From Oceanispirochaeta sp. (GTDB taxonomy: Bacteria; Spirochaetota; Spirochaetia; DSM-2461): a DNA stretch of 64,000 bases. The stretch is taken from positions 64,001 to 128,000 of the forward strand of contig CAXXOA010000001.1 in the NCBI GenBank assembly GCA_963666275.2, written 5' to 3'. Shown here one piece after another: positions 2,781-18,030 of the stretch. Both the position numbers and the translations under genes were made by a program. Positions within the stretch are counted from its first letter, which is position 1, and every line of letters begins with the position of its first letter. The notes beneath the pieces are model-generated. The model was not told where the DNA came from, searched no databases, and saw only the letters and a list, made by a program, of their open reading frames with translations.

Positions 2781-2804
2781 AAATCTGATATAATTTTTTA
2801 CTCG

Positions 2805-2840
2805 GGTGTGCTGAAATTAGCTTTCAGTACACCTTTTTTT
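2805..2840 (+). terminator. rho-independent terminator after phytase
   Basis: GGTGTGCTGAAA/TTTCAGTACACC stem followed by a T run. Confidence 0.8.
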
Positions 2841-2990
2841 ATAATTCAAGTTGGGATTATCAGCGCTTTGAACAGGATATCAGGAGTAGAAACAGCAGTT
2901 TGTTCAGGTTAGGGGCTGTTCTGAATAAACATTCCCGAAATCCGGTTTTCCTCTTCTCAAATATTCAGGAACTATTTATGAAAAAAAAAC

Positions 2991-3041
2991 TTTACAAATC
3001 ATGGGAGGGGGCGTATTATCAATAAAACGCACACGTGTGAG
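2991..3041 (+). promoter_or_regulatory. promoter plus GCACACGTGTGA operator upstream of ABC operon 1
   Basis: TTTACA 2991-2996, 17 nt, TATTAT 3014-3019, GCACACGTGTGA 3029-3040; matches the region at 1165-1236. Confidence 0.7.
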
Positions 3042-3085
3042 TTCTAGAAAAGGTGTATCGTGTGCATCGCAAAAATGGAGGTCTT

Positions 3086-4144
3086 ATGCGAGTTAAAATT
3101 ATTGCTTTACTGTCAGTTTCTCTTGTAGCTCTGGCATTGCTGATCGGGTGTATGGACAAAAAAGGAGATGCCGCCGCTGCGGGTGGAAAAAAATCCACAC
3201 ATCTGACCATCTACTGTGCTCTTCCCGAAACTGAAATCCCTTCCTATATCGAAGCTTTTAAAGAAGATACAGGTATTACTGTGGATTTTGTCCGACTCTC
3301 TGCAGGAGAAGTCCTTTCCAAAGTTCAGGTGGAAAAGAACAACCCCCAGGCCAGTGTCTGGTACGGTGGAAACTGTGACACTTTTATTGCCGCAGCTGGT
3401 AATGATCTTCTGGAACCATATGTTTCCCCTGAGCTGAAAAACATTCCTGAAAGCTATCAGGATCCCGAAGGATTCTGGTCGCCTGTCTATGTGGGAGCCC
3501 TTGCTTTCGCCGTAGACCGGGACTGGTTCAAAGAGAAGGGAATGGACTATCCCTCTTCCTGGAATGATCTTCTGGATCCCGTTTACAAGAATCAGATTTC
3601 CATGGCTCATCCCGGATCTTCGGGAACCGCCTATACCATCCTGGCCACTCTGGTTCAGATGCTGGGTGAAGACGAGGCGATGGATTATCTGAAAGAGCTG
3701 AATGCCAATATCCGTCAGTATACAAAATCCGGATCAGCTCCTCCCAAAAATGTGGGACTCGGTGAAGCCGCAGTAGGTCTCTCATTTTCCCATGACTGCC
3801 TGAAACCGGCTCTCCAGGGGTATCCAGTGGAAGTTTCTTTTCCCGAAGAGGGAACCGGATACGAAATCGGTGCGATTGCTCTGATCAAGGGCGGTCCCGA
3901 AGATGAAGTGGAAAATGCCAAAACTTTTATTGACTGGGTTCTCAGCAAAAAAGGCCAGGATATCTATTCCCAGAACGGTTCCTTCCGGCTGCCTGTCAAT
4001 GTGAACGCTCAGGTTCCCGAAGGGGCTGTGAATATCAAGGATCTTCCCATCATCGAGTATGATTTTATCTGGGCCGGTGAAAACCGGACACGACTGATTG
4101 AGAAATTTTCCGCCACCATCGCGGGGAAAGATAATCTGAAATAA
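3086..4144 (+). CDS. ABC transporter substrate-binding lipoprotein, AfuA/Fe3+/sugar-phosphate family
   Basis: lipobox LLIGC; RLSAGE, EKNNPQASVWYGG, PGSSGTAY, PEEGTGYEIG motifs; GGAGG RBS before ATG 3086. Confidence 0.85.
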   Translation: MRVKIIALLSVSLVALALLIGCMDKKGDAAAAGGKKSTHLTIYCALPETEIPSYIEAFKEDTGITVDFVRLSAGEVLSKVQVEKNNPQASVWYGGNCDTFIAAAGNDLLEPYVSPELKNIPESYQDPEGFWSPVYVGALAFAVDRDWFKEKGMDYPSSWNDLLDPVYKNQISMAHPGSSGTAYTILATLVQMLGEDEAMDYLKELNANIRQYTKSGSAPPKNVGLGEAAVGLSFSHDCLKPALQGYPVEVSFPEEGTGYEIGAIALIKGGPEDEVENAKTFIDWVLSKKGQDIYSQNGSFRLPVNVNAQVPEGAVNIKDLPIIEYDFIWAGENRTRLIEKFSATIAGKDNLK

Positions 4145-4154
4145 TTCCTTTTTC

Positions 4155-4207
4155 GTTTCTTCCGGAGTCTACGCAAGGGTTCTCCGGAATTCTGCTCCGG
4201 AAGAAAC
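4155..4207 (+). other. intercistronic stem-loop after binding-protein gene
   Basis: GTTTCTTCCGGAG...CTCCGGAAGAAAC 13-bp inverted repeat without T tail; typical mRNA-stabilising hairpin. Confidence 0.6.
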
Positions 4208-4233
4208 ACCCCAATATAACGACAGGATTTACT

Positions 4234-5910
4234 ATGACCAACTCTTTAAAAGATTTAACCTGGAAACTGAAAATGCTCGGGAAGGAACCGGTCCTCCTGG
4301 CTTTTATCATTATCCTTATAGCCCTGCTGACTCTCTTCGTCATGTTTCCGCTCTTTATGATACTGCGTTACAGTATCTCAACCGAAGAGGGCAGGCTTTC
4401 TCTGGACACTGTTGTGTCTGTTCTTAAAAACAGTTCCTACAGAACCACTTTTTTCAACAGTATCAAGCTGGGTGTTATCTCAGCGGTGATTGCGACAATA
4501 ATCGGGTATTTATTTGCCTTTACCATAACCAGAACAGAAGCCCCTTTTAAGGGATTTCTCAAAACCATGGCAACCCTTCCGGTTATCTCACCCCCCTTTG
4601 TTCTCTCCCTTTCCATTATCTTCCTCTTCGGAAGAAAGGGACTGATAACCAATGGCCTGCTGGGTATAACCGATTTTAATGTCTATGGCATGCACTCTCT
4701 CATTCTTGTGCAGTCCATCTCGTTTTTTCCGGTAGCCTATCTCACCCTTTCGGGGATCCTGCAGGCCATAGATTCTTCTGTGGAGGATGCGGCTCTGAAC
4801 CTGGGTGCCTCCCGGTGGAAAATTTTCTGGACTGTCACCTTTCCCCTCTCCCTTCCAGGGATTTTCAGCGCCCTTCTTCTTGTTTTCATCCAGTCCCTGC
4901 AGGATTTCAGCAATCCCGCGGTTATCGGCGGGGGATTCCCCACCCTGGGGGTCGAGGCCTACAGAGTCATCACCGGAATGTACGACCTGAGAACCGGAGC
5001 AATCCTTTCGATCATGCTCCTGGTTCCCAGTCTGATCGCCTTTCTGCTGCAGAAGTACTGGGTCAGCGGCAAAGGGTTTGTTACAGTCACGGGAAAGCCC
5101 TCCCAGAACCGGACCAAACTGGACGAAAAACACATTGTCATTCCCCTTGTGGGATTCTGCCTTCTCTTTAGCGGCGTGATCGTTCTGTTTTACGGTACCG
5201 TGATCGGAGGGGCCTTTGTAAAGGTCTGGGGCGTGGACTACTCTCCCACGTTCAATCACTTCAGATATGTTTTCTCCATAGGGTTCAAACCTCTGAAGAA
5301 TGCGGTACTTCTGGCTGTGATCGCCACCCCGCTGACGGGGCTCGCCGGTATGGCCATAGCCTTCCTGACAGTCCGTAAAAGCTTTATCGGTAAAAAGTAT
5401 ATGGGCCTGGCCTCTCTTCTGACTTTTGCCCTCCCGGGGACCGTGGTGGGAATCAGTTTTATCCTTGCCTTCAATGACAGGCCTTTCCTGCTGACAGGTA
5501 CCGCACTGATCCTCATCTGTGTTTTTGTATTCCGGAACCTGCCGGTAGGTATCGAAGGAGCGACGTCCGCTTTAATGCAGATAGATCCCTCCATTGAAGA
5601 GGCTGCAGTGAACATGGGGGCCAACAGCTTTCAGACATTTTTCCATGTCACTCTGCCTCTCATAAAAGGGGCATTCTTTTCGGGACTTGTCTACTCCTTT
5701 GTGCGGGCCATGACGGCGGTCAGCGCCATCATCTTTCTGGTTTCAGCCCGGTGGAATGTGGTTACCACAAGAATCTTTTCCCTCTTTGAAGTCAGTCAGT
5801 ACAGCGATGCCGCCGCGTATATCGTCATCATGATAGCTGTGATTATCACAGCCATTTATATTCTCAACAATCTGGTCGAGCGCATCAGTCCGGATCAAAA
5901 AAACAAATAA
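4234..5910 (+). CDS. ABC transporter permease, AfuB/FbpB type (two fused permease domains)
   Basis: many hydrophobic segments, two EAA loops (EDAALNLGAS, EEAAVNMGAN). Confidence 0.92.
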   Translation: MTNSLKDLTWKLKMLGKEPVLLAFIIILIALLTLFVMFPLFMILRYSISTEEGRLSLDTVVSVLKNSSYRTTFFNSIKLGVISAVIATIIGYLFAFTITRTEAPFKGFLKTMATLPVISPPFVLSLSIIFLFGRKGLITNGLLGITDFNVYGMHSLILVQSISFFPVAYLTLSGILQAIDSSVEDAALNLGASRWKIFWTVTFPLSLPGIFSALLLVFIQSLQDFSNPAVIGGGFPTLGVEAYRVITGMYDLRTGAILSIMLLVPSLIAFLLQKYWVSGKGFVTVTGKPSQNRTKLDEKHIVIPLVGFCLLFSGVIVLFYGTVIGGAFVKVWGVDYSPTFNHFRYVFSIGFKPLKNAVLLAVIATPLTGLAGMAIAFLTVRKSFIGKKYMGLASLLTFALPGTVVGISFILAFNDRPFLLTGTALILICVFVFRNLPVGIEGATSALMQIDPSIEEAAVNMGANSFQTFFHVTLPLIKGAFFSGLVYSFVRAMTAVSAIIFLVSARWNVVTTRIFSLFEVSQYSDAAAYIVIMIAVIITAIYILNNLVERISPDQKNK

Positions 5911-5924
5911 AGGAAGACTTGAAA

Positions 5925-7055
5925 ATGAAAGATCATTTTGAGGAAGAAATAAAAGCCAAAAGCAGCGGATTGAAAATGGTCAATCTGACAAAGAAATTTT
6001 CCAGTCACGACGGGACAGGGGAGTTCACAGCTGTGGATTCAATCAACCTGGAGATCAAGTCAGGGGAACTGACCACACTCCTGGGGCCTTCGGGCTGCGG
6101 AAAAACAACCACCCTCCGTATGGTGGCGGGGTTTGAGAGCATCACTTCCGGGTCCCTCCTTCTGGGAGATGAGTCCATTGAGTCGGTTCCTCCCAATAAA
6201 AGGGATATGGCCATGATGTTCCAGAGCTACGCCCTTTTTCCCCATATGACAGTCTACAACAATATCCGTTACGGACTGAAAATTCAGAAACTGCCGGAGA
6301 AGGAGATTGAGGAAAGGACCAACAAGATCATCGATCTTATGCAAATCCGGGGTATGGAAAACAGACTCCCTTCAAAAATCTCCGGAGGACAGCAGCAGAG
6401 AGTCGCCCTGGCCAGAGCTGTGGTGATTGAGCCCAAAGTCCTGCTATTCGACGAACCCCTTTCCAATCTGGATGCCAAACTGAGGGAGTATATGAGAGAC
6501 GAGCTCCGGTCCCTTCAGCAGAGGCTGGGAATTACAAGTCTCTATGTCACCCATGACCAGTCAGAAGCCATGGCCATCAGCGACAAGGTCGTCCTTATGA
6601 ATGAGGGACGGATTCAGCAGGTGGGATCTCCCGCGGAACTCTATAACGAACCGGCCTCTCTCTTCGTAGCGGATTTCATCGGCAAATCCAACTTTCTGCC
6701 CTGTCTGGTGGCTTCCCGGTCCGCCGATGGAGCTGTCGCTTCCATACTGGGGGAGAATTTCCTTCTGAAAGCTCCGGGTAAAGCCTATACGGGAGAAACC
6801 GGAGAGATGACCGCCGTCATAAGGCCCGAAGCTGTCAAACTGGTCGATCCGGAGGAGGAAAAACTCACAGGTGTGGTCCGGAAGGCCATTTTCTTCGGCA
6901 ATTTTGTGGAGTATGAGGTCCGGGTAAAGGACAGAAATTTGCGAATCGAATCCTACTGTCCCCAGGAACAGAAAATCTACAGGGTCAACGATCCGGTGGG
7001 TATCCGGTTCAACCTTGAAAGTATCCGTCTTCTGGAAGAGTCGGAAAAGGACTGA
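5925..7055 (+). CDS. ABC transporter ATP-binding protein, AfuC/PotA type
   Basis: Walker A GPSGCGKTT, signature ISGGQQQR, Walker B LLFDEP, C-terminal TOBE-like region; alternative TTG start 5919. Confidence 0.95.
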   Translation: MKDHFEEEIKAKSSGLKMVNLTKKFSSHDGTGEFTAVDSINLEIKSGELTTLLGPSGCGKTTTLRMVAGFESITSGSLLLGDESIESVPPNKRDMAMMFQSYALFPHMTVYNNIRYGLKIQKLPEKEIEERTNKIIDLMQIRGMENRLPSKISGGQQQRVALARAVVIEPKVLLFDEPLSNLDAKLREYMRDELRSLQQRLGITSLYVTHDQSEAMAISDKVVLMNEGRIQQVGSPAELYNEPASLFVADFIGKSNFLPCLVASRSADGAVASILGENFLLKAPGKAYTGETGEMTAVIRPEAVKLVDPEEEKLTGVVRKAIFFGNFVEYEVRVKDRNLRIESYCPQEQKIYRVNDPVGIRFNLESIRLLEESEKD

Positions 7056-7060
7056 ATCCT

Positions 7061-7867
7061 ATGAAAAGCGCATATAAACTGGTGGTCTGTGATCTCGACG
7101 GAACTCTGGTCAATGAGGAAAAGCAGATCTCCCGGAAGAACCGGGAGGCCATTGAACAGTTCCGGGAGTGCGGAGGTGAAATCACTTTTGCGACCGGCAG
7201 GATCGAAAAATCCGTCAAAAAGTACGCCACTGAGCTGAATGTCCGTGTTCCCATGATCCTCTATAACGGTGCCAGGATCTATCATCCCGAAACAGGGGAT
7301 GTGGTCCGGGATCTGACCCTCTCGGCATCAGAAGTCGGAAAAGCGGTTGAACTGATGGAACAGTTCCCCTTCGACTATATTTTCTACTCCGCAGGAGAGG
7401 CCTATATTCTGAAGTCCACTGAAGCCGTCCGGACCTATGAAAAAGGGGATGGATTCCAGTGCGTAGTGGATCCGGACATTGAAAAGATATCCCGGCTGAA
7501 GATAACCAAAATCCTGATGATCGGGGATAACAGATATTTCGAAGATTTCAGACGGCAGTTTCAGGCCGATCCGGAATGCCGGGCCAATCTGGTCCAGTCT
7601 GAGAATACCTACCTGGAAATACTCCCCGAAGGAGTTAACAAGGGAAATGCCCTGGAGGTCCTCTCTGATCATCTTGGTATTCCCATGAAGGAGATCATCT
7701 GCTTCGGAGACAATCTGAATGATCTGGAGATGATTGTCAGAGCCGGAGTGGGCGTAGCCATGTCCAACGGGCGTGAGGAAGTCCGGGCTGCCGCAGATAT
7801 TGTGGCCCCAAGCAATAATGAAGATGGAGTGGGAAGCGTTCTGACTTCCCTGATGGAGGAATCGTAA
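7061..7867 (+). CDS. Cof-type HAD-IIB phosphatase
   Basis: DLDGTL motif I, ATGR motif II, KG motif III, FGDNLND motif IV. Confidence 0.93.
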   Translation: MKSAYKLVVCDLDGTLVNEEKQISRKNREAIEQFRECGGEITFATGRIEKSVKKYATELNVRVPMILYNGARIYHPETGDVVRDLTLSASEVGKAVELMEQFPFDYIFYSAGEAYILKSTEAVRTYEKGDGFQCVVDPDIEKISRLKITKILMIGDNRYFEDFRRQFQADPECRANLVQSENTYLEILPEGVNKGNALEVLSDHLGIPMKEIICFGDNLNDLEMIVRAGVGVAMSNGREEVRAAADIVAPSNNEDGVGSVLTSLMEES

Positions 7868-8742
7868 TGAAGGATATTACAATGGTAGGTCATATATCCA
7901 GGGATATCATGATCTATGAGGAGGAGACTCAGCGTTTTACAGGAGGGCCGGTCATCTACTCTTCCGTGGCTGCGGCCCGTTCGGGAGCCCGGGTGCAGGT
8001 GATCACGGCCTGCAGCGAAGAAGACGACAGGTCTCTGGATGTCATGAGAGATAACGGAGTGGATGTGGTCCGCCTGGAATCGGAAACTTCCACGAGTATT
8101 GAAAATATCTATCTATCTGCCGACAGGGAGAGGCGGAAAGTCACACTCCTGTCCCAGGCTGTTCCCTTCAGCACGGAGAATTTCCCGGAAACAGAGAGCC
8201 GGATCTATCATCTGGCAGGGCTTTTCCGGGGGGAGATTCCCGATGACTTTATTCCCTATTTTGCAGCAAAAGGACGCCTGGGGATTGATGCGCAGGGACT
8301 GCTGCGCTGCAGTGAAGAGGGCAAGCTCCTCTTCCGGAACTGGGAGAATATGGATGACCTGATGCCCCATGTCTCCTTTTTCAAGGTCGATGCCGCGGAA
8401 GCCGAGATCCTGACAGGATTGAATAACCGGGAGGAAGCGGCAAAGGTTCTTGCCGGGAAGGGCGCTGATGAGGTCGTCCTGACCCATAATAATGAGGTCC
8501 TTGTCGTGGCGGAGGGGAAGGTTTTCCGGGCGCCCTACAATCCGTCGAATCTGTCGGGAAGGACCGGACGGGGAGATACCACCTTTGCCGCCTACATGGC
8601 CAGGAGGCTCAGCGCCGGACCGGAGGAGAGCACCTATTACGCCGCGGCCCTCTGTTCCATCAAAATGGAGCAGCCCGGTCCTTTTTCCGGAACTGAAGAG
8701 GATGTGTACAAGCGGATGGAGGCGATAGGGTTCAGAGCCTAG
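7867..8742 (+). CDS. PfkB/ribokinase-family kinase with PPi-dependent myo-inositol-kinase signature (kinase 1)
   Basis: GRTGRGDT replaces canonical DTTGAGD; also FKVDAAEAE, APY, SIKME, DAQGLLR, TSIEN; translationally coupled (TAATG) to HAD gene. Confidence 0.85.
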   Translation: MKDITMVGHISRDIMIYEEETQRFTGGPVIYSSVAAARSGARVQVITACSEEDDRSLDVMRDNGVDVVRLESETSTSIENIYLSADRERRKVTLLSQAVPFSTENFPETESRIYHLAGLFRGEIPDDFIPYFAAKGRLGIDAQGLLRCSEEGKLLFRNWENMDDLMPHVSFFKVDAAEAEILTGLNNREEAAKVLAGKGADEVVLTHNNEVLVVAEGKVFRAPYNPSNLSGRTGRGDTTFAAYMARRLSAGPEESTYYAAALCSIKMEQPGPFSGTEEDVYKRMEAIGFRA

Positions 8743-8745
8743 GAG

Positions 8746-8799
8746 TCTTTCCCTTTGAGGGCGGTAAAATTGTGAAATAATCCGCCTGAAAGGGAAAGA
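8746..8799 (+). terminator. stem-loop ending cluster 1
   Basis: TCTTTCCCTTT-GAGGGCGG...CCGCC-TG-AAAGGGAAAGA inverted repeat right after kinase stop; no + strand T tail. Confidence 0.5.
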
Positions 8800-8805
8800 A
8801 AAAAA

Positions 8806-8854
8806 TTGACGGATCCTTTTTACCGTAGTACTATTACTTAAACGTTTTAGTAAT
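8806..8854 (+). promoter_or_regulatory. promoter and LacI-type operator of LacI-2
   Basis: TTGACG 8806-8811, 17 nt, TACTAT 8829-8834, overlapping palindrome ATTACTTAAACGTTTTAGTAAT 8833-8854. Confidence 0.75.
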
Positions 8855-8863
8855 GAGGGTCAA

Positions 8864-9871
8864 TTGAGAGTTACCATAAAGGATATTGCCAGAAAAGCCG
8901 GAGTTTCTCCGGCTGCCGTATCCAAGGCATTGAATGGTCAGCCTGATATAGGAGAGGCCACCAGAGAGAATATCCTGCGCATAAGCAGGGAGCTGGGGTA
9001 CACGCCGAATATGATCGCCAGGAACCTTGTGAAGAAGGGAAATAAAACCGTAGGCGTTCTGATTCCGGATATCTCCACTCCGATCTATCCGGTGATCTAT
9101 AAAGGGATCAACGAAAGGGCCATGGAGTACGGGTATACTCTCTTTCTGGGTGATACAAAAAGGGATCTGGCAAATGAGCGGAAGTATATTGCCACCATGA
9201 TGGAAAACAGAGTGGCAGGACTACTTGTCAGTCCGGTGAGCAATGATATTTCCCATCTTGAGGAGGTTGTACAGAATCAGATACCAGTCATTTATTTCGG
9301 CGGTAAAGTCAATGAATCCATGAATGATTACATTGGTATTGATAATTTGCGGGGAGGAGCTCTGGCAGTTGAACATCTGACAGAACTGGGGCATCAGCGG
9401 ATTACCATGATCTGTGATGACCTGAATACCAGAACCCGGCATGACAGGGTGGAAGGATACAGAAAGGCGATGATCCAACGCGGTCTGACTCCTGATGTCT
9501 TTATCGACGATGAAGGCCTGAAGGGGAGAGAGTGCGGCAGTGCGGCTATCAACAGGATTCTGAAACGGAATCAGAAAGTTCCCACGGCGGTTTTTGCCCT
9601 GAATGACCTGATGGCTATCGGGGTCATGGAAGCTCTCAATACAGCAGGATTGCGGGTTCCCGAAGATATTTCTGTAATGGGTTACGATGATATCCCTTTT
9701 GCATCCCTTCCCATGATCGGTCTATCCACCATCTGGCAGCCCAAGTTTGAGACAGGTGAAATGGCTCTGGAGCAGCTGCATCACAGGATCATCAGAGATA
9801 ACTGGGAGGGGGAGAGACAGGTGGTACTGCAGCCGGAGCTGAGAGTCCGGACATCGACCTGCAGGGTCTGA
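8864..9871 (+). CDS. LacI family transcriptional regulator (LacI-2)
   Basis: VTIKDIARKAGVSPAAVSKALN HTH, YTPNMIARNL hinge, VPEDISVMGYDD; TTG start with GAGG RBS. Confidence 0.95.
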   Translation: MRVTIKDIARKAGVSPAAVSKALNGQPDIGEATRENILRISRELGYTPNMIARNLVKKGNKTVGVLIPDISTPIYPVIYKGINERAMEYGYTLFLGDTKRDLANERKYIATMMENRVAGLLVSPVSNDISHLEEVVQNQIPVIYFGGKVNESMNDYIGIDNLRGGALAVEHLTELGHQRITMICDDLNTRTRHDRVEGYRKAMIQRGLTPDVFIDDEGLKGRECGSAAINRILKRNQKVPTAVFALNDLMAIGVMEALNTAGLRVPEDISVMGYDDIPFASLPMIGLSTIWQPKFETGEMALEQLHHRIIRDNWEGERQVVLQPELRVRTSTCRV

Positions 9872-9887
9872 TATTTTTTTTAATTTG

Positions 9888-9906
9888 TTACTAAAACGTT
9901 TAAGTA
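9888..9906. promoter_or_regulatory. second copy of LacI-2 operator
   Basis: TTACTAAAACGTTTAAGTA is the exact reverse complement of 8835-8853. Confidence 0.75.
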
Positions 9907-9935
9907 TATGTTTAATTTTCCTGAAAGGAGTCCCT

Positions 9936-10628
9936 ATGGGGAAGTATAAGTATGAAATTCACGCCCATACGGCGGAAGTCAGCAGCTGCGGTCATGTAAA
10001 GGCGGCAGATGCTATAGCCCTGTACAAAGAGGCAGGGTATCAGGGCATTGTTTTTACAGATCATTTCAACCGGGAGTATTTTGACAGGCTCGATGGAATG
10101 GGCTGGGAGGAGATGATCGATGCTTTTCTGGAGGGGTACAGAAGTGCCCTGCCGGCGGCGCAGGCCCTTGATATGGATGTTTTCTGGGGAGTGGAACTCC
10201 GCTTTACAGAAAACGATAACGACTATCTGGTTTATGGCCTGGAAGAGGATTTTCTGAAAAGTCTGCCCTTTGTTCACACAACTTCCATAAAGGAGTTTAT
10301 GGAGCAGATCAGCAGCAGACCGGATATCCTTGTCTTTCAGGCTCATCCCTTCAGAGACGGCTGTTCTCTGGTGGATCCTCTGATTGTTGACGGACTGGAA
10401 GTTCATAACGGGAATCCCCGGCATGATTCCAGAGATGCACTGGCCGCGGAAATCGCCAGGGAGAATAACCTTCTTATTCTTTCGGGTTCGGACTTTCACA
10501 GGACGGGAGATCTGGCAACGGGAGGAATCATTTTACCCGAAAGAGTTGCATCCATGGGGGAATTTGTCTCCCGTGTGAAAAAACTGGACTGGGAATCACT
10601 CATAGTAAAGGAACGGGTATGCAGATAA
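9936..10628 (+). CDS. PHP-domain phosphoesterase
   Basis: HAHT, TDH, GVE, AHP, EVHNG, GSDFH metal-binding motifs; AAGGAG RBS before ATG 9936. Confidence 0.88.
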   Translation: MGKYKYEIHAHTAEVSSCGHVKAADAIALYKEAGYQGIVFTDHFNREYFDRLDGMGWEEMIDAFLEGYRSALPAAQALDMDVFWGVELRFTENDNDYLVYGLEEDFLKSLPFVHTTSIKEFMEQISSRPDILVFQAHPFRDGCSLVDPLIVDGLEVHNGNPRHDSRDALAAEIARENNLLILSGSDFHRTGDLATGGIILPERVASMGEFVSRVKKLDWESLIVKERVCR

Positions 10629-11377
10629 AGACAATTCTTTTTGATATGGGAGGGACCCTGGAGGACATCCATTATTCCGATAATGTCCCCCAGATCATAG
10701 GGAAAAGGATGGAGGAGATCCTTGAAATTCCCTTTGAAAAGATTACGGAGAAAAACGGCACTGATTTTTACAGTCACCTCCAGGGCCGCTATAAAGAGTA
10801 TCGGGATTTCAGGGAGAAAACCTGTATAGAGGTTCATCCCGCCATGGTATGGAAAGACTGGATTCTCAAGGGCCTGCCGGTGCCTGACTCCATTATTTTC
10901 GATAATCATGAAAAGCTGGCCTATTTCTGGGAAACCGAAGTGATCCAGCGCAGATGCCGCACAGAAGCGGTGGAAATGCTGAATGAGATCCGGAAAAGAG
11001 GAATCCGGATGGGAATAATAAGCAATACAGGCAGCTTCACCCAGGTTTACAAATCCCTGGATAAATACGGTATCCGGGATTTCTTTGAAAAAATTGCCCT
11101 TTCCGCAGACTACGGAATCAGAAAGCCTCATGGTTTTCTTTTCCGGGACATTATTAATCAGATGGGATGCGAAGCGGAAAATACACTTTATGTGGGTGAT
11201 ACGGTTTCCCGTGATGTAGTGGGCGCCAGGAACGCCGGACTGTACGGGTCTATTCAGATCTGCTCAGAGTTCACAAAACTGAGTGATCAGGAGCACAGTC
11301 CCGGAATCAAACCCGATTACATCATTCATGATCTGATGAGTATTCCCGAAATCGTGGACCGTATTAATCAGATCTGA
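10619..11377 (+). CDS. HAD-IA family hydrolase
   Basis: FDMGGTL motif I, ISN motif II, RKP motif III, YVGDTVSRD motif IV. Confidence 0.88.
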   Translation: MQIKTILFDMGGTLEDIHYSDNVPQIIGKRMEEILEIPFEKITEKNGTDFYSHLQGRYKEYRDFREKTCIEVHPAMVWKDWILKGLPVPDSIIFDNHEKLAYFWETEVIQRRCRTEAVEMLNEIRKRGIRMGIISNTGSFTQVYKSLDKYGIRDFFEKIALSADYGIRKPHGFLFRDIINQMGCEAENTLYVGDTVSRDVVGARNAGLYGSIQICSEFTKLSDQEHSPGIKPDYIIHDLMSIPEIVDRINQI

Positions 11378-11409
11378 AAGGAGGAAATTGTGAAAAAAAG
11401 GAGATATCT

Positions 11410-13248
11410 ATGGAAAATATAATCCAATCGGCAGTTTATGATAAATGGACAGGCAAAATCCGCTGCTCCATAAACAGAGCTGTCAATTATATACGAGACC
11501 CTCAGAATCTTCTGAGTGTGGTTTCTATCATTCTGCTGATCTATCTTGTGGCTTTTCCCCTCTGGGAAATCTTAAGTACCACATTTCAGCTTCAGTTCCG
11601 GGATTCCATGAAAACAGGCATTCCCGAAGGGTCATTCACGCTGCGCTACTGGGCATCCACCTTTGCCAGCGAAATCAGTAAGGCCATGTTTTACAAACCC
11701 CTGATGAATTCTCTGATGATTTCATTAAGTGTTTCGTTTTTCGGCATTATGATCGGAGGAATACTGGCCTGGCTGGTTTCCAGGACCGACCTGCCCATGA
11801 AGAAATTCTTCTCGTTCATCCTGGTGGTAGCCTATATGGTTCCCTCCTGGTGTAAAGCTCTTGCCTGGCAGGTTATGTTCAAGAACGACAGGATCGGAGG
11901 ACATCCGGGGATGTTTCAGGCCATTACCGGAGTCAGTCTTCCCGACTGGTTCTCCTACGGCTTTGTTCCCATTGTGGTGACCCTGTCGCTGCACTATTTT
12001 GTTTTCTCTTTTCTGCTGATCTCTTCCGCTCTGGCTTCCATCGGGGGAGACCTGGAGGAAATGGCAGAAATTACAGGGGCCAAACGGGGAACCATCCTGA
12101 GGAAAATTACTTTTCCCCTGGTCCTCCCGGCCATTCTGTCCTCATTTATTCTGACTTTTTCAAAAGCCATCGGTTCTTTCGGCGCTCCCGCTTTTCTGGG
12201 GCTGAAAGTAAACTATTACACTCTTTCCACCATGATCTATGCCAATATCAGGAACAGAATGACCACTCAGGCATTCACCCTGGGAATCGTTCTGATGGTT
12301 GTGGCCAGTTTTACTGTCTACCTCAACCAGAAAGCTATCGGTAAAAGGAAGAGTTTTACCACCATCGGCGGAAAAAGCACAAGAAAGAACTTCATCAAGC
12401 TGAAAAAGCTGAAACCGGTGATTACGGCTCTGGTTCTGCTCTTTGTTATTCTCGGAGTGATCATGCCCCTGGTGGTGCTGGTCCTTCAGAGTGTTATGCT
12501 CACCGAAGGAGTCTACAGCCTGGATAATCTGACCCTCCATTTCTGGATAGGCGATGGAAACCCGGCTATTGCCGACGGAGAAGCCGGTATCTTTCATAAT
12601 CCGCGTATATGGAAAGCCCTTTTCAATACCCTGAGGCTTGTCTTTATTGTGTCCATTATAGCAACTGTGGCGGGACTGCTTCTGGGGTATCTCATATCCC
12701 GGGGAAGAAGGAAAATGAGCGGCAGATTTATTGAACAGATCTCTTTTACGCCCATGCTGATTCCCTCTATTGCCCTGAGTACCATTTATCTCTCCATGTT
12801 TTCCAAACCCCAGCTGTTTCTGCCGGTGCTCTACGGAACATTTGCCCTGCTTGTGCTTATCAGTATTGTCAAATATCTGCCCTTTGCGGTCCGTTCCGGA
12901 ACCAGCAGCATGATGCAGATCAATACGGAGCTGGAAGAGGCGGCCAAGATTGAAGGAACCCCCTGGGTGAAAATCTTTTCAAAGCTAATCCTTCCCCTGG
13001 CAAAGGGCGGTGTCTTCAGTGCTTTTCTTCTGATCTTTATCAGCGGAATGAAAGAACTGGCGCTGATTATGCTTCTGGTTACTCCTGAAACAGCCACCCT
13101 TACCACTTTGACCTACGCCTATACAGAGTCGGGGTTTGAGCAGTTTTCCAATGCCATTACTACACTGATCATTTTTATCATTATCACTGTGAACTTTATT
13201 GCTCGGAAAGTGAGCAAAGCGGACATTTCCAAAGGAATAGGAGGTTGA
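11410..13248 (+). CDS. ABC transporter permease, Fe3+/FbpB type
   Basis: multi-TM protein, two EAA-like loops (EEMAEITGA, EEAAKIEG). Confidence 0.9.
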   Translation: MENIIQSAVYDKWTGKIRCSINRAVNYIRDPQNLLSVVSIILLIYLVAFPLWEILSTTFQLQFRDSMKTGIPEGSFTLRYWASTFASEISKAMFYKPLMNSLMISLSVSFFGIMIGGILAWLVSRTDLPMKKFFSFILVVAYMVPSWCKALAWQVMFKNDRIGGHPGMFQAITGVSLPDWFSYGFVPIVVTLSLHYFVFSFLLISSALASIGGDLEEMAEITGAKRGTILRKITFPLVLPAILSSFILTFSKAIGSFGAPAFLGLKVNYYTLSTMIYANIRNRMTTQAFTLGIVLMVVASFTVYLNQKAIGKRKSFTTIGGKSTRKNFIKLKKLKPVITALVLLFVILGVIMPLVVLVLQSVMLTEGVYSLDNLTLHFWIGDGNPAIADGEAGIFHNPRIWKALFNTLRLVFIVSIIATVAGLLLGYLISRGRRKMSGRFIEQISFTPMLIPSIALSTIYLSMFSKPQLFLPVLYGTFALLVLISIVKYLPFAVRSGTSSMMQINTELEEAAKIEGTPWVKIFSKLILPLAKGGVFSAFLLIFISGMKELALIMLLVTPETATLTTLTYAYTESGFEQFSNAITTLIIFIIITVNFIARKVSKADISKGIGG

Positions 13249-13249
13249 T

Positions 13250-14392
13250 ATGAGCCGGATTGAATTGAATAAGGTAAATAAATTTTATGATAAAGTGCAT
13301 ATCCTCAAAGATGTGGACCTGGTAATAGAACAGGGCGATTTCATGACCCTTCTGGGCCCCTCTGGCTGTGGGAAAACCACCACGCTCCGGGTCATTTCGG
13401 GACTGGAGAATCCCCAGAGCGGGACTGTTGTTATCGACGGTCAGTCTGTGGCTGATCCTGTGACCGGAAAATTCGCCCCTCCCTCCAAAAGGAATCTGAA
13501 TCTTGTTTTTCAGAGCTATGCGCTCTGGCCCCATATGACTGTATTTGACAATGTGGCATTCGGTCTGACAGTTAAAAAAGAGCCAAAAAGTGAAATAAAG
13601 AAAAAAGTCATGGCCGCTCTGGAGAAAATGCAGATAGCCGAGTACGCCGAAAGGTATCCTTCCGAGCTTTCAGGAGGTCAGCAGCAGAGGGTCGCCATTG
13701 CCCGGGCGATCGTTTCCCAGCCCAAGATCCTCCTGCTGGATGAACCTCTTTCCAACCTGGATGCCAAGCTCCGGGTGGATATGAGAGCCGAGCTGAAAAG
13801 GCTGCATAAGGATCTGAAAACCACCATTATCTATGTGACTCACGATCAGGTGGAGGCTCTGACCCTCTCTTCAAAGATTGCTGTTTACTTCGAGGGGGTT
13901 CTTACCCAGTGCAATACCCCGTCGGAAATCTATAACAATCCATCCACCCTCAAGGTGGCGGAGTTTATCGGTAATCCTAAAATCAACTTTATCAAAGGGG
14001 TCGTTAATGACATGGAGAAGGGGCAGCTCAAGGTGAAAAGCTCCTTCGGAGAGATTTCTCTCAAAGATATCGATGCCAGAGACAGTGGGATTGTAAAACT
14101 CTTCAGTGAGAATAATCCGGGATCCGAGGTGACCCTTGCCATCCGTCCAGAGGACATTCTTGTTTCCAGAGAGAAGGCGGAAGGGGCTTTCCCCTGCACA
14201 GTCGTTTCCATTCTGCCCGCCGGATCGGAAACCCTTCTGGAACTGGAAATGGGAGATTCTCTGCTCATGGCCAAAGAGATTGGTCAGCACCGGTATGAAA
14301 TGGGCGATGTCCTGTTTGCCACGTTAAAGCAGGAGAGGATGAATGTGTATGAGAACGGAGAGGGATCCCTGGTGGTTCGTGCCGTTGACTGA
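13250..14392 (+). CDS. ABC transporter ATP-binding protein
   Basis: GPSGCGKTT, LSGGQQQR, LLLDEP. Confidence 0.95.
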   Translation: MSRIELNKVNKFYDKVHILKDVDLVIEQGDFMTLLGPSGCGKTTTLRVISGLENPQSGTVVIDGQSVADPVTGKFAPPSKRNLNLVFQSYALWPHMTVFDNVAFGLTVKKEPKSEIKKKVMAALEKMQIAEYAERYPSELSGGQQQRVAIARAIVSQPKILLLDEPLSNLDAKLRVDMRAELKRLHKDLKTTIIYVTHDQVEALTLSSKIAVYFEGVLTQCNTPSEIYNNPSTLKVAEFIGNPKINFIKGVVNDMEKGQLKVKSSFGEISLKDIDARDSGIVKLFSENNPGSEVTLAIRPEDILVSREKAEGAFPCTVVSILPAGSETLLELEMGDSLLMAKEIGQHRYEMGDVLFATLKQERMNVYENGEGSLVVRAVD

Positions 14393-14473
14393 GACCAATA
14401 AGGGTTAGGTTCGGGAAACTCCCCGCAAGGGGATTTCCTGATAATAATAGATTCTATTCTAAAGGAGCGTTCT

Positions 14474-15646
14474 ATGTTGAAAATGAGAAAGGTCGGATTT
14501 TTTCTATTTACCGCACTTCTGGTATTGTCTTTTTCCGGATGCAGTAAAAAAGCCGCGGACACTGTTCAGGCCGTCGAAGAAAAAAGTTGGGACGAGCAGG
14601 TCGGTCTGGCCGAAAACCTGAGCACCGAGGAACTGTATGAGAAAGCCAAGGAGGAAGGCACAGTTACAGTTTATTCCATGTCCAGCAGATTCAACGATGT
14701 AAAGGAGACTTTTGAAGCTCAGTATCCCGGGGTCGAAGTTGTCGTTTATGACATGAGAAACTCGGAAATTCTGGAAAAATTCCAGAGAGAGCATGAGGCG
14801 GGCATTAGAAATGCGGATCTTCTTTTTGTGAAAGATACGGATGGCGCCGTGTACAATGAGTTTGTCAGAATGGGACTGCTGAAAGAGTTCGTCCCCCAGG
14901 ATATGATGAAAACCGCCCCTGCCAGTTTTCAGAAAGGCGGCTATGCTCCCTATTTTGAAATGAAGCAGGTGTTCTACAATACCGAAGTCTATGATTCCTG
15001 TCCTATCGACAGCTGGTGGGATCTGACCCGGCCTGAATACAGGGGAAAAATCATACTGAGAAGTCCCATTGAAAACTCTGAAATCATGGGTCTTTTTACA
15101 GCGATTGTGAAAAACAGTGACGAAATGGAACAGGCTTATAAAAAAGAGTTCGGCCAGGACATTGTGCTGAATGACACTAAAAATGCCGGTTTTGAGTTCC
15201 TGAAAAGACTGACAGACAATGACCTTATCGTGATGACCAGTGATACGGACATCGTCGAAGCCGTGGGAACTCCCGGACAGATTGATCCTCCCTTCGGAAT
15301 CGCCACTTCCAGTAAAATGCGGAAAGCCGGTCCCAACCTGATGATCAATGTTGCGGAAGATCTCTCCCCCCGTCTTGGTATTGTCGATCCGGCCTACCTT
15401 TACATCGCCGATCACTCCGAGCACGTGAATGCGGCCAAACTGGTTATGAGATGGGTCGGCGGAGAAGCTGATGGATCCGGAGCCGGATTCAATCCCTTCC
15501 ATGTCAGGGGTTCCTGGCCTTCCAGAGCGGATGTTGAACCTGTTCAGACTCCTGCCCTGGCGTCTCTGAATCTCTGGGATCTGGACCTGGAATACAACTA
15601 CAGCGTTCTGGATGATATGAGAAATTTCTGGATTACCCTGCAGTAA
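14474..15646 (+). CDS. ABC transporter substrate-binding lipoprotein (Fe3+/phosphoester-binding family)
   Basis: lipobox FSGC; AKEEGTVTVYS, FEAQYPGV, FYNTE, SWWDL, NAAKL motifs; AAGGAG RBS. Confidence 0.85.
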   Translation: MLKMRKVGFFLFTALLVLSFSGCSKKAADTVQAVEEKSWDEQVGLAENLSTEELYEKAKEEGTVTVYSMSSRFNDVKETFEAQYPGVEVVVYDMRNSEILEKFQREHEAGIRNADLLFVKDTDGAVYNEFVRMGLLKEFVPQDMMKTAPASFQKGGYAPYFEMKQVFYNTEVYDSCPIDSWWDLTRPEYRGKIILRSPIENSEIMGLFTAIVKNSDEMEQAYKKEFGQDIVLNDTKNAGFEFLKRLTDNDLIVMTSDTDIVEAVGTPGQIDPPFGIATSSKMRKAGPNLMINVAEDLSPRLGIVDPAYLYIADHSEHVNAAKLVMRWVGGEADGSGAGFNPFHVRGSWPSRADVEPVQTPALASLNLWDLDLEYNYSVLDDMRNFWITLQ

Positions 15647-15658
15647 GTTAAAAAAACG

Positions 15659-15682
15659 GGACAGCCTGAGTGCAGGCTGTCC
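15659..15682. other. stem-loop between binding protein and kinase 2
   Basis: GGACAGCCTG-AGTG-CAGGCTGTCC perfect 10-bp stem. Confidence 0.6.
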
Positions 15683-15704
15683 TATCTGAAAAGGATATTT
15701 CACA

Positions 15705-16583
15705 ATGCAATATGATATAACTATGATCGGCCATGTCTGCAAGGATACCCTGGAGGATATGGGACAGATCTCCCATAGTCTGGGAGGGGCGGTCTATTAC
15801 TCCTCCATCGCCGCAGCAAGAAGCGGTTCCCGAATCCATGTGGTCACAAAGGCATCCCTTCAGGATGATCTTCTGATGGACGTTATGCGCAAGAATGGCG
15901 TTGAGGTCACACGGCTTGACGACGATAAAACTACCGAAATCAAGCTGATTTATGATTCTCCCGACAGGGAAAGACGGCAGGTCATCCTGGAGCAGCAGGC
16001 CGAACCATTCGCCACAGCGGGATTCCCCGCCTCGGAAAGCAGGATCTATCATATGGCAGGACTGTTCAAAGGGGAAATCCCGGATGATTTTATTCCCTTC
16101 CTCGCCGAGAGGGGAGAGGTGGCCATGGACGTGCAGGGGGTTCTGCGATGCAGTGAAGAGGGAAACCTGGTTTTCCGTAACTGGGAACTGGCCAATGAAT
16201 ACCTTCCCCGGGTTACCTATCTGAAAACCGATGCGGCGGAAGCGGAAATTCTGACAGGCCTGAAAGACAGGGAAGCCGCCGCCCGGGAGCTGGCAGCAAA
16301 GGGTGTGAGGGAAGTGATGATCACCCACAATGAAGAAGTCCTTCTTCTGGCAGAGGGCAAAATGATGAAGGCTCCCTTCAATCCGGCGAACCTTTCGGGA
16401 AGAACCGGTCGGGGAGATACCACCTTTGCGGCCTACCTTTCCAAACGGCTGGAAGCGGGGCCCTATGAATCCCTCTTTTACGCCGCCGCCCTCTGTTCCA
16501 TAAAAATGGAGAGTCCCGGTCCCTATCTGGGAGGGATTTCCGAGGTATACAAACGGATGGAGCAGATAGGATACAGGCAGTAA
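15705..16583 (+). CDS. PfkB/ribokinase-family kinase with PPi-dependent signature (kinase 2, paralog of 7867-8742)
   Basis: GRTGRGDT, LKTDAAEAE, APF, SIKME, DVQGVLR; collinear and strongly similar to kinase 1. Confidence 0.85.
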   Translation: MQYDITMIGHVCKDTLEDMGQISHSLGGAVYYSSIAAARSGSRIHVVTKASLQDDLLMDVMRKNGVEVTRLDDDKTTEIKLIYDSPDRERRQVILEQQAEPFATAGFPASESRIYHMAGLFKGEIPDDFIPFLAERGEVAMDVQGVLRCSEEGNLVFRNWELANEYLPRVTYLKTDAAEAEILTGLKDREAAARELAAKGVREVMITHNEEVLLLAEGKMMKAPFNPANLSGRTGRGDTTFAAYLSKRLEAGPYESLFYAAALCSIKMESPGPYLGGISEVYKRMEQIGYRQ

Positions 16584-16612
16584 AGCCTGTACGGGGAAAA
16601 ACACTTTCTTTT

Positions 16613-16644
16613 ACAGAAAGGTCTCTTTAATGAGCCCTTTCTGT
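16613..16644. terminator. hairpin between convergent genes
   Basis: ACAGAAAGG...CCTTTCTGT inverted repeat. Confidence 0.45.
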
Positions 16645-16761
16645 CTCACTATTTTCACCTTCTAATATCAATTTCCCGCTGTATATCTGGATATTCAGGA
16701 ATAATCAGTTATCAGGATAATGAAATACTGTTGAGAACACCCATCTTTACTGCAATGACTT

Positions 16762-17790
16762 TTATAAGCGGATTCCTCCGAAAAGAGTGGCATCCAGAAC
16801 CGTTGCAGACATTTGCAGGTTTTCCTTCGGATTGGCTATATCAGTCACATCAAGGTATGCATGAAAACCGCAATAAAAATTGTTGAAATTCATTCCAGTA
16901 GCCAGGCGGATGTTGTATTTCATCATCAGGATCTGTGCTTTGATTGTCTCGCTGCTTACACTATAGTCCCGGGCATCCTTGCTGAGAGTCTCATAGCTCT
17001 GCCACTGATAGGCCGGACCGGCAAAAATTACGGGTGTAAAATAGAAGTGTGACAGGACAAAGCTGTATCCGAACCCGGGCAACAAGCTCACTGAGTGGTA
17101 GCTGGATTCGCTGAATGCCGCTGCCTGGCCATAGTAGGATATCTGTTCTTCCGGGATGAGGGGTTTGTCGTTTGAAAAGCTGATATAATTGTAGGATGTC
17201 ATCAGCATCATCGCCCCGGCTCTTTTCAGTTGGACGGCAGAATTTTTAAAGGCGCTTTTCAGGGAGAAATTGTCTCCCGCAATGGTATAGAAAAAATCGG
17301 CCCCGATATTGTAGCACTCCATATCGCCCTGCTGAATCATTACCCCATTCTCCGGAGGTGAGGAAACCAGATCGGAGGTATTGGAAATATAATAGCCCTT
17401 GTACCGCATATAGTAGGTATCCAGGCCCCAACTGTCGCTGTAATAGGTAAGATTTATATCCTGATAATCTGTTTCTCCGTATTTGGTGCTGTCTCTTCCG
17501 TTCAGTAAACCATAGGAAGCACTGATTCCCCACTGTTTGTAGGAAGCCTGCATTCCCAGGTTCAGGGGGACATTCGGTCTGTATTCAATGGAGGTGCTCT
17601 CTGAGTCGGATGAGGAAAAGTTCAGAAAAAACATCCTGGATGAAACAGATGGCTGAATAATGAGATCGCTGTCATAGGACATATAGTAGAGTGAGTCATC
17701 AGTGCTCTCGGGTTTCGGAACTTCCCCGGAAATAAAAAAGGCAGTTAGAAGTAAAGCCGTGATAAATAGTCTCAGTTTCAATTCAGCCAT
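16762..17790 (-). CDS. putative outer-membrane beta-barrel protein, DUF4421-like
   Basis: signal peptide; YRPN..LG..ASYK, YKGYY, FSLKSAF..QLKRAG motifs, alternating aromatic beta-strand pattern, C-terminal GGIRL. Confidence 0.6.
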   Translation of the reverse strand: MAELKLRLFITALLLTAFFISGEVPKPESTDDSLYYMSYDSDLIIQPSVSSRMFFLNFSSSDSESTSIEYRPNVPLNLGMQASYKQWGISASYGLLNGRDSTKYGETDYQDINLTYYSDSWGLDTYYMRYKGYYISNTSDLVSSPPENGVMIQQGDMECYNIGADFFYTIAGDNFSLKSAFKNSAVQLKRAGAMMLMTSYNYISFSNDKPLIPEEQISYYGQAAAFSESSYHSVSLLPGFGYSFVLSHFYFTPVIFAGPAYQWQSYETLSKDARDYSVSSETIKAQILMMKYNIRLATGMNFNNFYCGFHAYLDVTDIANPKENLQMSATVLDATLFGGIRL

Positions 17791-17887
17791 GGAAAATCCT
17801 TATATGGTTGGAATCATTTTATCATATCAACTCATAGAAAAAAGATCATTAAAATCCTCGAGTCAGCCTTTAATTCCAGAAATTCAG

Positions 17888-17940
17888 ACAAAAAAAGCCC
17901 ACCCGAAGGTGAGCACACTAAATGTAACAGAAGAGTATCC
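17888..17940. repeat. left copy of ~53-bp direct repeat containing a minus-strand terminator
   Basis: ACAAAAAAAGCCCACCCGAAGGTGAGCACACTAAATGTAACAGAAGAGTATCC, near-identical to 18805-18858. Confidence 0.9.
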
Positions 17941-18030
17941 TGAATTCGACTGATCATACTGACAGTTCTATTATGAGTATCTTTCTTGATCCAGTATAAA
18001 AAGAACGCTATTATATAATCAGAGGTTTAT

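Follow-up and report, generated by a model that had tools for sequence, protein, structure and literature searches.

A second, separately regulated transport and phosphatase cluster with a paralogous, predicted pyrophosphate-dependent kinase in Oceanispirochaeta

Pyrophosphate (PPi)-dependent kinases of the ribokinase family were described in 2018, with TM0415 of Thermotoga maritima as a PPi-specific myo-inositol 1-kinase, and myo-inositol has been doubted as the true acceptor of that enzyme (Nagata 2018, PMC5931981). Here, we report a comparative analysis of a gene cluster that ends in a predicted kinase of this type, located in a 64,000-nucleotide stretch of an Oceanispirochaeta sp. genome (GenBank assembly GCA_963666275.2, contig CAXXOA010000001.1, positions 64,001 to 128,000 of the forward strand; hereafter, the window, in whose coordinates all positions are given unless another locus is named). 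Two plus-strand clusters fill the first 16.6 kb of the window. The second, cluster 2 (8806-16583), is an operon of seven plus-strand genes for, in this order, a LacI-family repressor (LacI2), a PHP-family metal phosphoesterase, a HAD-IA hydrolase, a fused ABC permease, an ABC ATPase, a lipoprotein solute-binding protein, and a ribokinase-family (PfkB) enzyme, kinase 2. Its paralogue, kinase 1 (7867-8742, plus strand), is the last gene of cluster 1 and serves as the comparison throughout.

Cluster 2 opens with a promoter-like site on the plus strand (TTGACG, 17 nt, TACTAT; 8806-8834), which scores 9/12 in a consensus scan. Abutting the -10 box is an 18-mer, TACTTAAACGTTTTAGTA, the predicted LacI2 operator O1 (8835-8852); its exact reverse complement, O2 (9889-9906), lies within the 64-bp gap between the LacI2 and PHP genes. 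LacI2 itself (8864-9871; 335 amino acids (aa)) matches the Pfam families LacI and Peripla_BP_3/1/4. The PHP protein (9936-10628; 230 aa, cytoplasmic; Pfam PHP plus PHP_C) is read as starting at the ATG at 9936, which an AAAGGAG ribosome site precedes, whereas the listed open reading frame (9885-10628) opens with a TTG; its homologues begin at the ATG position. The HAD-IA hydrolase follows (10619-11377; 252 aa, motif I beginning D-M-G; assigned from Pfam and NCBIfam), and then the permease, with two BPD_transp_1 stretches (11410-13248; 612 aa), the ATPase, with a TOBE domain (13250-14392; 380 aa), and the binding protein (14474-15646; 390 aa), which barely passes the SBP_bac_1 profile and for which the predicted ligand is an inositol phosphate. 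A G+C-rich hairpin (15659-15682), without a T-run after it on the plus strand, occupies the gap before the gene for kinase 2 (15705-16583; 292 aa), a TM0415-type enzyme predicted to be PPi-dependent. No known RNA elements were found in window positions 1-18000.

Cluster 1 (120-8742) encodes, in order, a LacI-family repressor, a His_Phos_2 protein (listed with 511 aa), a PhnS2-like binding protein, a fused permease, an ATPase, a Cof-type HAD-IIB phosphatase, and kinase 1. An earlier note on this DNA, made from the letters alone, had described cluster 2 as carrying a different LacI, different hydrolases, and a transporter in another gene order with a dissimilar binding protein, yet a kinase closely similar to kinase 1, and the alignments bear this out: the two LacI proteins share 28% identity, the permeases 26%, and the ATPases 50%, and the binding proteins show no significant likeness (E 0.006 over 103 aa), whereas the kinases are 61% identical over 288 aa without a gap. 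The strings singled out in that note are also where it placed them, NLSGRTGRGDTTFAAY and AALCSIKME in both kinases, ISRDIMIY and TSIEN in kinase 1, and VCKDTLED and TEIKL in kinase 2, and its statement that TSIEN is shared with TM0415 is correct (TTSIENRY in the PDB alignment). A recent tandem duplication of the whole cluster was considered and is ruled out by the same comparison, in which only the kinases are close and the binding proteins cannot be aligned. Judged by these identities, the kinase is the sole close paralogue between the clusters and appears to have been added to transport and phosphatase genes that differ from those of cluster 1 and are older as a module.

The kinase-2 type is present in 6 of the 38 genomes of the order that were searched, five of which also have the kinase-1 type, and a TM0415-type kinase of any kind occurs in 11 of the 38; the window genome has none beyond kinases 1 and 2. 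Close homologues and related loci derive from Oceanispirochaeta, Spirochaetaceae, and Sphaerochaeta, which puts the organism among the Spirochaetia of marine type. Clusters 1 and 2 are adjacent in three genomes and lie 32 kb and 216 kb apart in two others. The complete seven-gene order of cluster 2 recurs in five further loci (L001, L003, L004, L110, and L111), which takes the arrangement beyond chance, as do the E values of both kinases against the TM0415 structures: about 1e-54 for kinase 1, and 1e-43 to 1e-42, over residues 5-274, for kinase 2.

The regulatory signals of the two clusters are distinct. The ACTTAAACGTTTAAGT-like palindrome appears twice in cluster 2, as the 18-mer O1 directly after the -10 box and as its exact reverse complement O2 between LacI2 and PHP, and both copies are kept in all six loci that hold the region (the window and the five loci above); a TTGAC..N17..-10 layout precedes the operator in L110, L111, L001, and L003 as well. 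LacI2 has the hallmarks of the LacI/GalR family, namely an N-terminal helix-turn-helix and a periplasmic-binding-protein-like effector domain, together with a palindromic operator that has a central CG and lies near the promoter, and we infer that it binds operators of the O1/O2 type. The operators of cluster 1 are CACACGTGTG at 1224 and 3030, with a one-mismatch copy at 1200; a further one-mismatch match, at 6866, falls inside a gene, and the chance expectation is 0.47. Separate regulation of cluster 2, as the earlier note proposed, is thus well supported by a LacI of its own and a conserved operator unlike that of cluster 1. Elsewhere in the genome, a cluster-1-type operator, GCACACGTGTGA, lies at G000:C2:140158 (L122 3159-3170), just upstream of a gene for a Na+/Pi cotransporter-PhoU fusion, so that the cluster-1 repressor may also control a phosphate carrier.

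The cluster-2 operator has three exact sites in the 5.27 Mb genome (3 contigs). Two are O1 and O2; the third, at G000:C2:1207314, overlaps the -10 box of a TTGACA-17-TATTAT promoter and is followed by a cluster-1-type half site, GCACACGTG. Approximately 320 bp downstream of it begins the gene for an exported 476-aa His_Phos_2 protein (L121:8649-10079), here MINPP-2, which combines the RHGSRNL and HAET motifs, a signal-peptide-like N-terminus, and the Pfam His_Phos_2 domain expected of MINPP phytases. MINPP-2 is 50% identical to the cluster-1 His_Phos_2 protein, the cluster-1 MINPP, which in turn matches BtMinpp at E 2e-37. In two relatives, G008 and G009, the orthologue of MINPP-2 (76-77% identity) is found directly upstream of cluster 2, with the cluster-2 operator on the -10 box of its promoter, followed after about 20 bp by a full cluster-1 operator. 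In a third relative, G015, the orthologue heads cluster 1, with a cluster-2-type operator at -284. Five relatives have a single MINPP each (E 1e-30 or better). Going by these promoter regions, cluster 2 is an independent unit that appears to be wired into the same exported-phosphatase system as cluster 1.

An operator common to cluster 2 and an exported MINPP makes inositol-phosphate use the most likely role of cluster 2 and speaks against a diester source such as glycerophosphoinositol, which the earlier note had suggested. That suggestion is not supported: MINPP stands beside cluster 2 in two relatives, a single MINPP accompanies both kinase types in the relatives that have them, and the gene for glycerophosphodiester phosphodiesterase (GDPD) lies in a separate, Ugp-like cluster and not in cluster 2. 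Glycerophosphoinositol is accordingly set aside as the leading candidate for the cargo. The Ugp-like ABC importer, with its GDPD gene, lies beside a DeoR-type regulator (L122 5964-9778, G000:C2) and is the more likely route for glycerophosphodiesters.

Two observations on the MINPP genes are recorded in their own right. The leader of MINPP-2 (L121 8330-8648) spans about 320 nt from the operator-covered promoter to the start codon and contains an ATGCC..TCAGCAT..GGGTGA-type stretch, which is seen in the G008 and G009 leaders too; a comparison of the MINPP-2 leader with Rfam gave no match. The MINPP orthologue of the closest relative, G011 (L123, G011:C15:31500-32915), contains a single in-frame TAA, so that the gene may be broken or the assembly at fault.

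The donor side of kinase 2 has the sequence features of a PPi-dependent enzyme. The donor signature of TM0415 consists of K171, F221, R229, R232, and M266, plus an RXGRGD motif (PMC5931981). All five residues are kept in kinase 2, as K174, F225, R233, R236, and M268, and the catalytic D234 is matched by D238, in agreement with the earlier note, which saw nearly the same donor-side C-terminus in both kinases. The three basic PPi-binding residues, K174, R233, and R236, are invariant in 13 of 13 members of the kinase-2 clade described below. Kinase 2 further carries RTGRGD at 233-238 and, as D176-A-A-E179, the DxxE variant of the NXXE motif, and so has every sequence hallmark of the PPi-dependent ribokinase subgroup, including the F225 and M268 of the signature; kinase 1 has a Tyr at the F221 site. 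Both kinases also match the archaeal myo-inositol 3-kinase (MI3K_TK) at E 1e-8. In kinase 2, Arg236 fills the second-residue site of GXGD, where the ATP-using MI3K_TK type has a small residue; kinase 2 may resemble that type on the acceptor side, yet it is not a member of it.

In TM0415, inositol is held by D11, N78, Q141, and R145, in a pocket lined by I76, S89, and L116; in the archaeal 3-kinase, L77, L87, and V112 replace N78, S89, and L116, and the ring is bound in an orientation rotated by about 120 degrees (PMC5931981). TM0415 homologues altered at N78 and S89 yield products other than inositol 1-phosphate (Ins1P) (Nagata 2018, PMC5931981). We mapped the pocket by alignments to these solved relatives. 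Kinase 2 retains D14, I79, L120, Q144, and R148, the equivalents of D11, I76, L116, Q141, and R145, and departs from the 1-kinase acceptor site of TM0415 by the changes N78 to L81 and S89 to V93. Kinase 1 keeps Asn at the N78 site, while S89 is replaced by Val there as well. The N78 site is occupied by Leu in 13 of 120 homologues, with Ile in one, and in 3 of the 79 kinase rows taken from 79 genome loci.

The 13 Leu-bearing kinases, which are 63-86% identical to the window kinase 2, form one clade (SH-aLRT 100, stem 0.33) nested within the kinase-1-type spirochaete enzymes, in a tree of 81 rows from which 3 fragments and 36 more distant homologues were left out. Eight alignment columns split this clade from the other 107 homologues: C12, T15, L16, D18, E/H24, Y31, L81, and V143. 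All eight belong to the N-terminal, acceptor half, the donor half having none, and the changes show little or no variation among the 13 members. Four fall in the stretch right behind D14, which, given the topology of the ribokinase fold, we take as the first lid hairpin; one is just past the GG motif, one is the N78 site, and V143 sits between D142 and Q144. An altered acceptor side, as the earlier note had it, is therefore borne out, down to the inositol-contacting residue N78.

In the alignment to TM0415 and TK2285 (MI3K_TK) that the earlier note proposed as a check, the N78 and S89 sites are changed, and 4 of the 8 clade positions match or resemble MI3K_TK. In the direct alignment (3w4s/4xf7), the MI3K_TK partners of Y31, L81, and V143 are Tyr, Leu, and Ile, and that of position 24, which is Glu in 11 of the 13 clade members but His in the window kinase 2, is Glu. 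In this weak alignment, L81, V93, and L120 together with D14, Q144, and R148 correspond to L77, L87, and V112 together with D12, Q136, and R140 of MI3K_TK. PDB entry 7E4L is, by its alignment, TM0415 with N78L and S89L; kinase 2 scores 153.3 bits against it and 149.0-149.8 against wild-type TM0415, and kinase 1 ranks them in the reverse order (186.3 against 188.8 bits).

The two hydrolases of cluster 2 are less readily placed. The PHP metal ligands H9, H11, H43, E87, H137, D186, and H188 are invariant in 62 sequences, as expected of a PHP enzyme, and the AF2 model (pLDDT 96) has TM0559, PsfC, BAD_1165, RNase AM, and Cv1693 as its nearest folds. The protein is similar to PHP esterases that are uncharacterised and to the pAp-phosphatase/RNase AM group, and fusions with metallo-beta-lactamase or calcineurin-like phosphoesterase domains occur among relatives. 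Motif I of the HAD-IA protein is D-M-G-G-T, which is not the canonical D-x-D and is without the Asp+2 general acid/base; relatives in the PDB are PH0459 and YihX. The D-x-G form of motif I is found in 15 of 15 HAD-IA homologues beside such kinases, at ten loci (L001, L003, L004, L054, L069, L071, L075, L078, L110, and L111), with four copies in L071 and three in L078. NCBIfam gave no match for PHP at E 0.001 or better and, for the HAD-IA and binding proteins, only matches below the curated cut-offs; the ESM Atlas returned generic names only for the cluster-2 proteins searched, and the relatives that PDB searches by sequence and by fold brought up are uncharacterised or distant. No signal sequence was seen in the N-termini of the PHP, HAD-IA, and Cof proteins.

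Parts of the module recur at a greater distance. PHP-kinase adjacency with D-x-G HAD copies is also found in Clostridia and Oscillibacter bins (L071, L073, L075, and L078), and L069 combines a cluster-2-type importer, three HADs, and a kinase with a Kelch-purple acid phosphatase and an inositol-dehydrogenase-like gene. In L071, from a Clostridiales bin, a gene for an H+-translocating pyrophosphatase (H+-PPase; 13059-15185 of that locus) lies near the LacI-PHP-kinase module (kinase at 10001-10873), in a neighborhood that also holds MgtC, an MFS carrier, and a 1005-aa purple acid phosphatase.

The permease of the cluster-2 importer is PhnU2-like at 145 bits, below the cut-off. The N-terminus of the binding protein ends in ...SFSGC, which we read as a lipobox, as we do the Cys after a hydrophobic stretch in its cluster-1 counterpart. 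The latter is clearly related to the glucose-6-phosphate binder VcA0625 (E 7e-75), to AfuA (E 9e-71), and to P5PA; AfuA and P5PA are absent among the matches of the cluster-2 protein up to E 1, so that it is not of the AfuA type by sequence. It has 170 homologues, none functionally named, relatives being called "iron(III) transport system substrate-binding protein" in one source. Foldseek matches of its AF2 model (pLDDT 92) are MctA, IbpS, FbpA, PhnS-like, VcA0625, P5PA, and AfuA, at 14-19% identity, and place the fold only within an anion-binding Fe3+/citrate/phosphonate/sugar-phosphate class. On this modelled fold, an anionic cargo is plausible; the phosphoester uptake proposed in the earlier note is indicated indirectly, by the fold class, the binding protein having no significant sequence match to a solved phospho-sugar binder. 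Across the 79 loci, pocket type and importer type show no clean match, each importer type occurring with several pocket signatures, and a literature search for an inositol-phosphate ABC importer found nothing relevant.

Both clusters seem to draw on inositol polyphosphates. The reading that we favor, which we regard as an evenly balanced call, is that cluster 2 is a second branch of inositol-phosphate (phytate) use, in which kinase 2 acts on myo-inositol held in the orientation of the archaeal 3-kinase, and hence on another hydroxyl, and not on a different polyol; the prediction of the same cyclitol with another hydroxyl follows from the half of the changed pocket positions that match or resemble the archaeal enzyme. 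LacI2 would control the operon by binding the shared operator, and the exported MINPP would trim inositol polyphosphates outside the cell. The cluster-2 importer would take up a subset of the products distinct from the cluster-1 cargo, and the PHP and D-x-G HAD enzymes would strip phosphates in the cytoplasm. Kinase 2 would interconvert inositol and an inositol monophosphate isomer, probably D-Ins3P, via PPi/Pi, and kinase 1 would handle a different isomer. The genome has two H+-PPases, five IolG-class genes above the curated cut-off, and IolE; an inositol-phosphate synthase domain was not found in it (97% completeness).

Several observations weigh against this reading. In the kinase, C12, T15, L16, and D18, four of the eight clade positions, are unlike MI3K_TK, and kinase-1 types also agree with MI3K_TK at one of the eight. 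Kinase 1, too, departs from the TM0415 pocket, by its S89 to Val change, and a change at S89 alone has been accompanied by altered products (Nagata 2018, PMC5931981), which makes a contrast of 1-kinase versus 3-kinase a guess. Among the enzymes beside it, PHP and HAD-IA belong within uncharacterised subfamilies, and the HAD-IA protein, because the general acid/base Asp is absent, may not be an ordinary phosphomonoesterase. The N78L/S89L variant of TM0415 reportedly produces Ins3P, which is a lead and not evidence. The cluster-2 binding protein has no significant sequence match among the solved phospho-sugar binders (8x1a, E 0.41), and its best fold match, MctA, is a metal-citrate binder. No operator was found within 1.5 kb upstream of the MINPP orthologue of G011, and in G012 the contig ends, which leaves no operator reading there. 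Finally, the pairing of a kinase with phosphatases seems wasteful if the kinase runs forward, and the Iol pathway consumes free inositol.

This last point motivates, and does not show, a variant of the same scheme, in which both kinases run backwards once inositol polyphosphates have been imported and partly dephosphorylated, passing the last phosphate to orthophosphate and so making PPi for the H+-PPases and PPi-dependent glycolysis. Kinase 1 and kinase 2 would then be specific for different isomers, for example, D-Ins1P and D-Ins3P. We put this forward tentatively, as doubtful but worth stating. In its favor are the need of IolG and IolE for free inositol, the lack of an inositol-phosphate synthase, the two H+-PPases, and the H+-PPase gene beside the L071 module. 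The equilibrium, which is expected to favor inositol phosphate formation, counts against it. A hint in the same direction as the favorable points comes from the Km values of TM0415, 12 mM for inositol and below 15 uM for PPi (PMC5931981). If the kinases did run in reverse, this would amount to energy conservation from phytate and would explain why the kinase always lies beside importers and phosphatases.

The strongest competitor to myo-inositol as the acceptor of kinase 2 is a different cyclitol or polyol, such as scyllo- or chiro-inositol, derived from another phosphoester or diester or from a non-myo inositol phosphate, as the earlier note had proposed. The pocket is altered as that proposal requires: the inositol-contacting Asn of TM0415 is lost, seven more acceptor positions are fixed differently, and the new polar residues T15, D18, E24, and Y31 suggest a re-drawn pattern of hydrogen bonds. 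Five IolG-class dehydrogenases fit the use of several inositol isomers, and the two MINPP paralogues of the genome are just 50% identical. PHP enzymes include diesterases, and the fusions of PHP relatives to metallo-beta-lactamase or calcineurin-like phosphoesterase domains would suit a diester. However, the equivalents of D11, Q141, R145, I76, and L116 are all retained, which makes the same cyclitol bound differently the more likely outcome, and half of the changes lead toward a known myo-inositol kinase. In the relatives with both kinases, the single MINPP carries the cluster-2 operator, so that one precursor pool seems to feed both branches, and the separate location of GDPD, outside cluster 2, argues against the diester form. 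Overall, we consider a different cyclitol rather unlikely. The associated claim that kinase 2 would widen the known acceptors of PPi-dependent kinases is weaker than it was made, given that inositol kinases acting on other hydroxyls (Nagata 2018) and LguH of Luteolibacter sp. LG18, a 2-keto-3-deoxygluconate (KDG) kinase that uses PPi and ATP (PMC12632266), have already been described.

Simple redundancy is improbable. It would have kinase 2 share the acceptor and the product of kinase 1, with the changes reflecting drift or adaptation to partners or expression context, and it draws on the 61% gap-free identity of the kinases, their identical donor sites (the Tyr of kinase 1 noted above apart), and the retention of three of the four residues that bond inositol in TM0415. 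Yet the 13 members group together on a long stem branch (0.33), their eight near-invariant changes are confined to the acceptor half and spare the donor half, and homologues with changes at N78 or S89 give altered products (Nagata 2018). That cluster 2 has nothing to do with inositol phosphates and imports a metal chelate (iron or metal-citrate) or another anion, its kinase and phosphatases serving an unrelated pathway, is very hard to credit: the fold matches to MctA, IbpS, and FbpA and the iron(III) name of some relatives are set against an identity to those proteins of 14-19%, a 51-sequence consensus of the binding protein that has no conserved Tyr-Tyr pair (presumably the iron site of FbpA), a LacI-type repressor placed over phosphoesterases plus an inositol-kinase homologue, and an operator shared with an exported MINPP.

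Two further features of the window lie outside the clusters. Directly 3' of kinase 2, on the minus strand, is a gene for a DUF4421 protein (16762-17790), from a family that is mostly from Bacteroidota. A block of about 7.6 kb is present in two copies (33561-41198 and 44554-52550), each with an RpiR regulator, a short-chain dehydrogenase, a TRAP transporter (DctPQM), a split transketolase, and a D-2-hydroxyacid dehydrogenase; both blocks give equal scores for DctM and for transketolase, suggesting a very recent duplication.

Returning to the branch of myo-inositol phosphate use that we favor, the genome offers a natural pair of close paralogues with the same type of donor signature and systematically different acceptor sites, each with a predicted importer, phosphatases, and repressor of its own, and both connected to exported MINPP phytases. 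The pair bears on which pocket residues set regio- and stereo-specificity in nature, and the clusters bear on which inositol phosphates bacteria import and on whether the energy of phosphate bonds is recovered as PPi, with relevance to phytate turnover in sediments and to the cheap, PPi-driven synthesis of defined inositol phosphates. In a literature search, we did not find the operon context, the dual-repressor wiring with MINPP, or the paralogue pair in print, and the words kinase and ABC transporter are absent from a 2025 review of microbial inositol-derivative metabolism.

Among known systems, AfuABC, VcA0625, and P5PA (4R72, 8X1A, and 6WCE) resemble the importer of cluster 2 in combining a single binding protein with a fused double permease and a single ATPase, and in the fold class of the binding protein, which differs from theirs in being no sequence relative. 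Both MINPP paralogues of the window genome share the RHGxRxL and HAE motifs and export with BtMinpp of Bacteroides thetaiotaomicron (4FDT and 5CX4); unlike BtMinpp, they are encoded alongside importers and PPi kinases and under operators of the LacI type. LguH indicates by its acceptor that PPi-using sugar kinases extend beyond inositol, and differs from kinase 2 in that acceptor, KDG, and in its use of ATP as well (PMC12632266). Closer to kinase 2 are the TM0415 homologues No. 49 (Levilinea saccharolytica) and No. 7 (Acanthamoeba), which are PPi-specific and act on myo-inositol with non-Ins1P products (Nagata 2018). Homologue 49, the N78L/S89L form among the published candidates, is like kinase 2 at N78L and has, in addition to S89L, the change L116S and three products, whereas kinase 2 keeps the Leu of the L116 site (Nagata 2018, PMC5931981).

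MI3K_TK (TK2285) of Thermococcus kodakarensis, an ATP-dependent myo-inositol 3-kinase (3W4S, 4XF6, and 4XF7), has in common with kinase 2 a Leu at L77, an aliphatic side chain at L87, Tyr-Tyr following GG, and a beta-branched residue ahead of the conserved Gln, and with the clade consensus the Glu at position 24; the match is weak (E 1e-8) and confined to the N-terminal half; kinase 2's donor site is of the PPi type, with Arg in GXGD. TM0415 (1VK4, 5YSP, and 5YSQ) is like kinase 2 in fold family, donor residues, RXGRGD, catalytic Asp, the Lys of the monovalent-cation site, and D11/Q141/R145. It is unlike kinase 2 in having N78 in place of Leu, S89 in place of Val, and another first lid hairpin, and its gene stands in the Thermotoga iol oxidation operon, whereas that of kinase 2 accompanies an importer and phosphatases under LacI. 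By these comparisons of sequence, the most fitting description of kinase 2 is a new natural variant within the PPi-dependent ribokinase subgroup.

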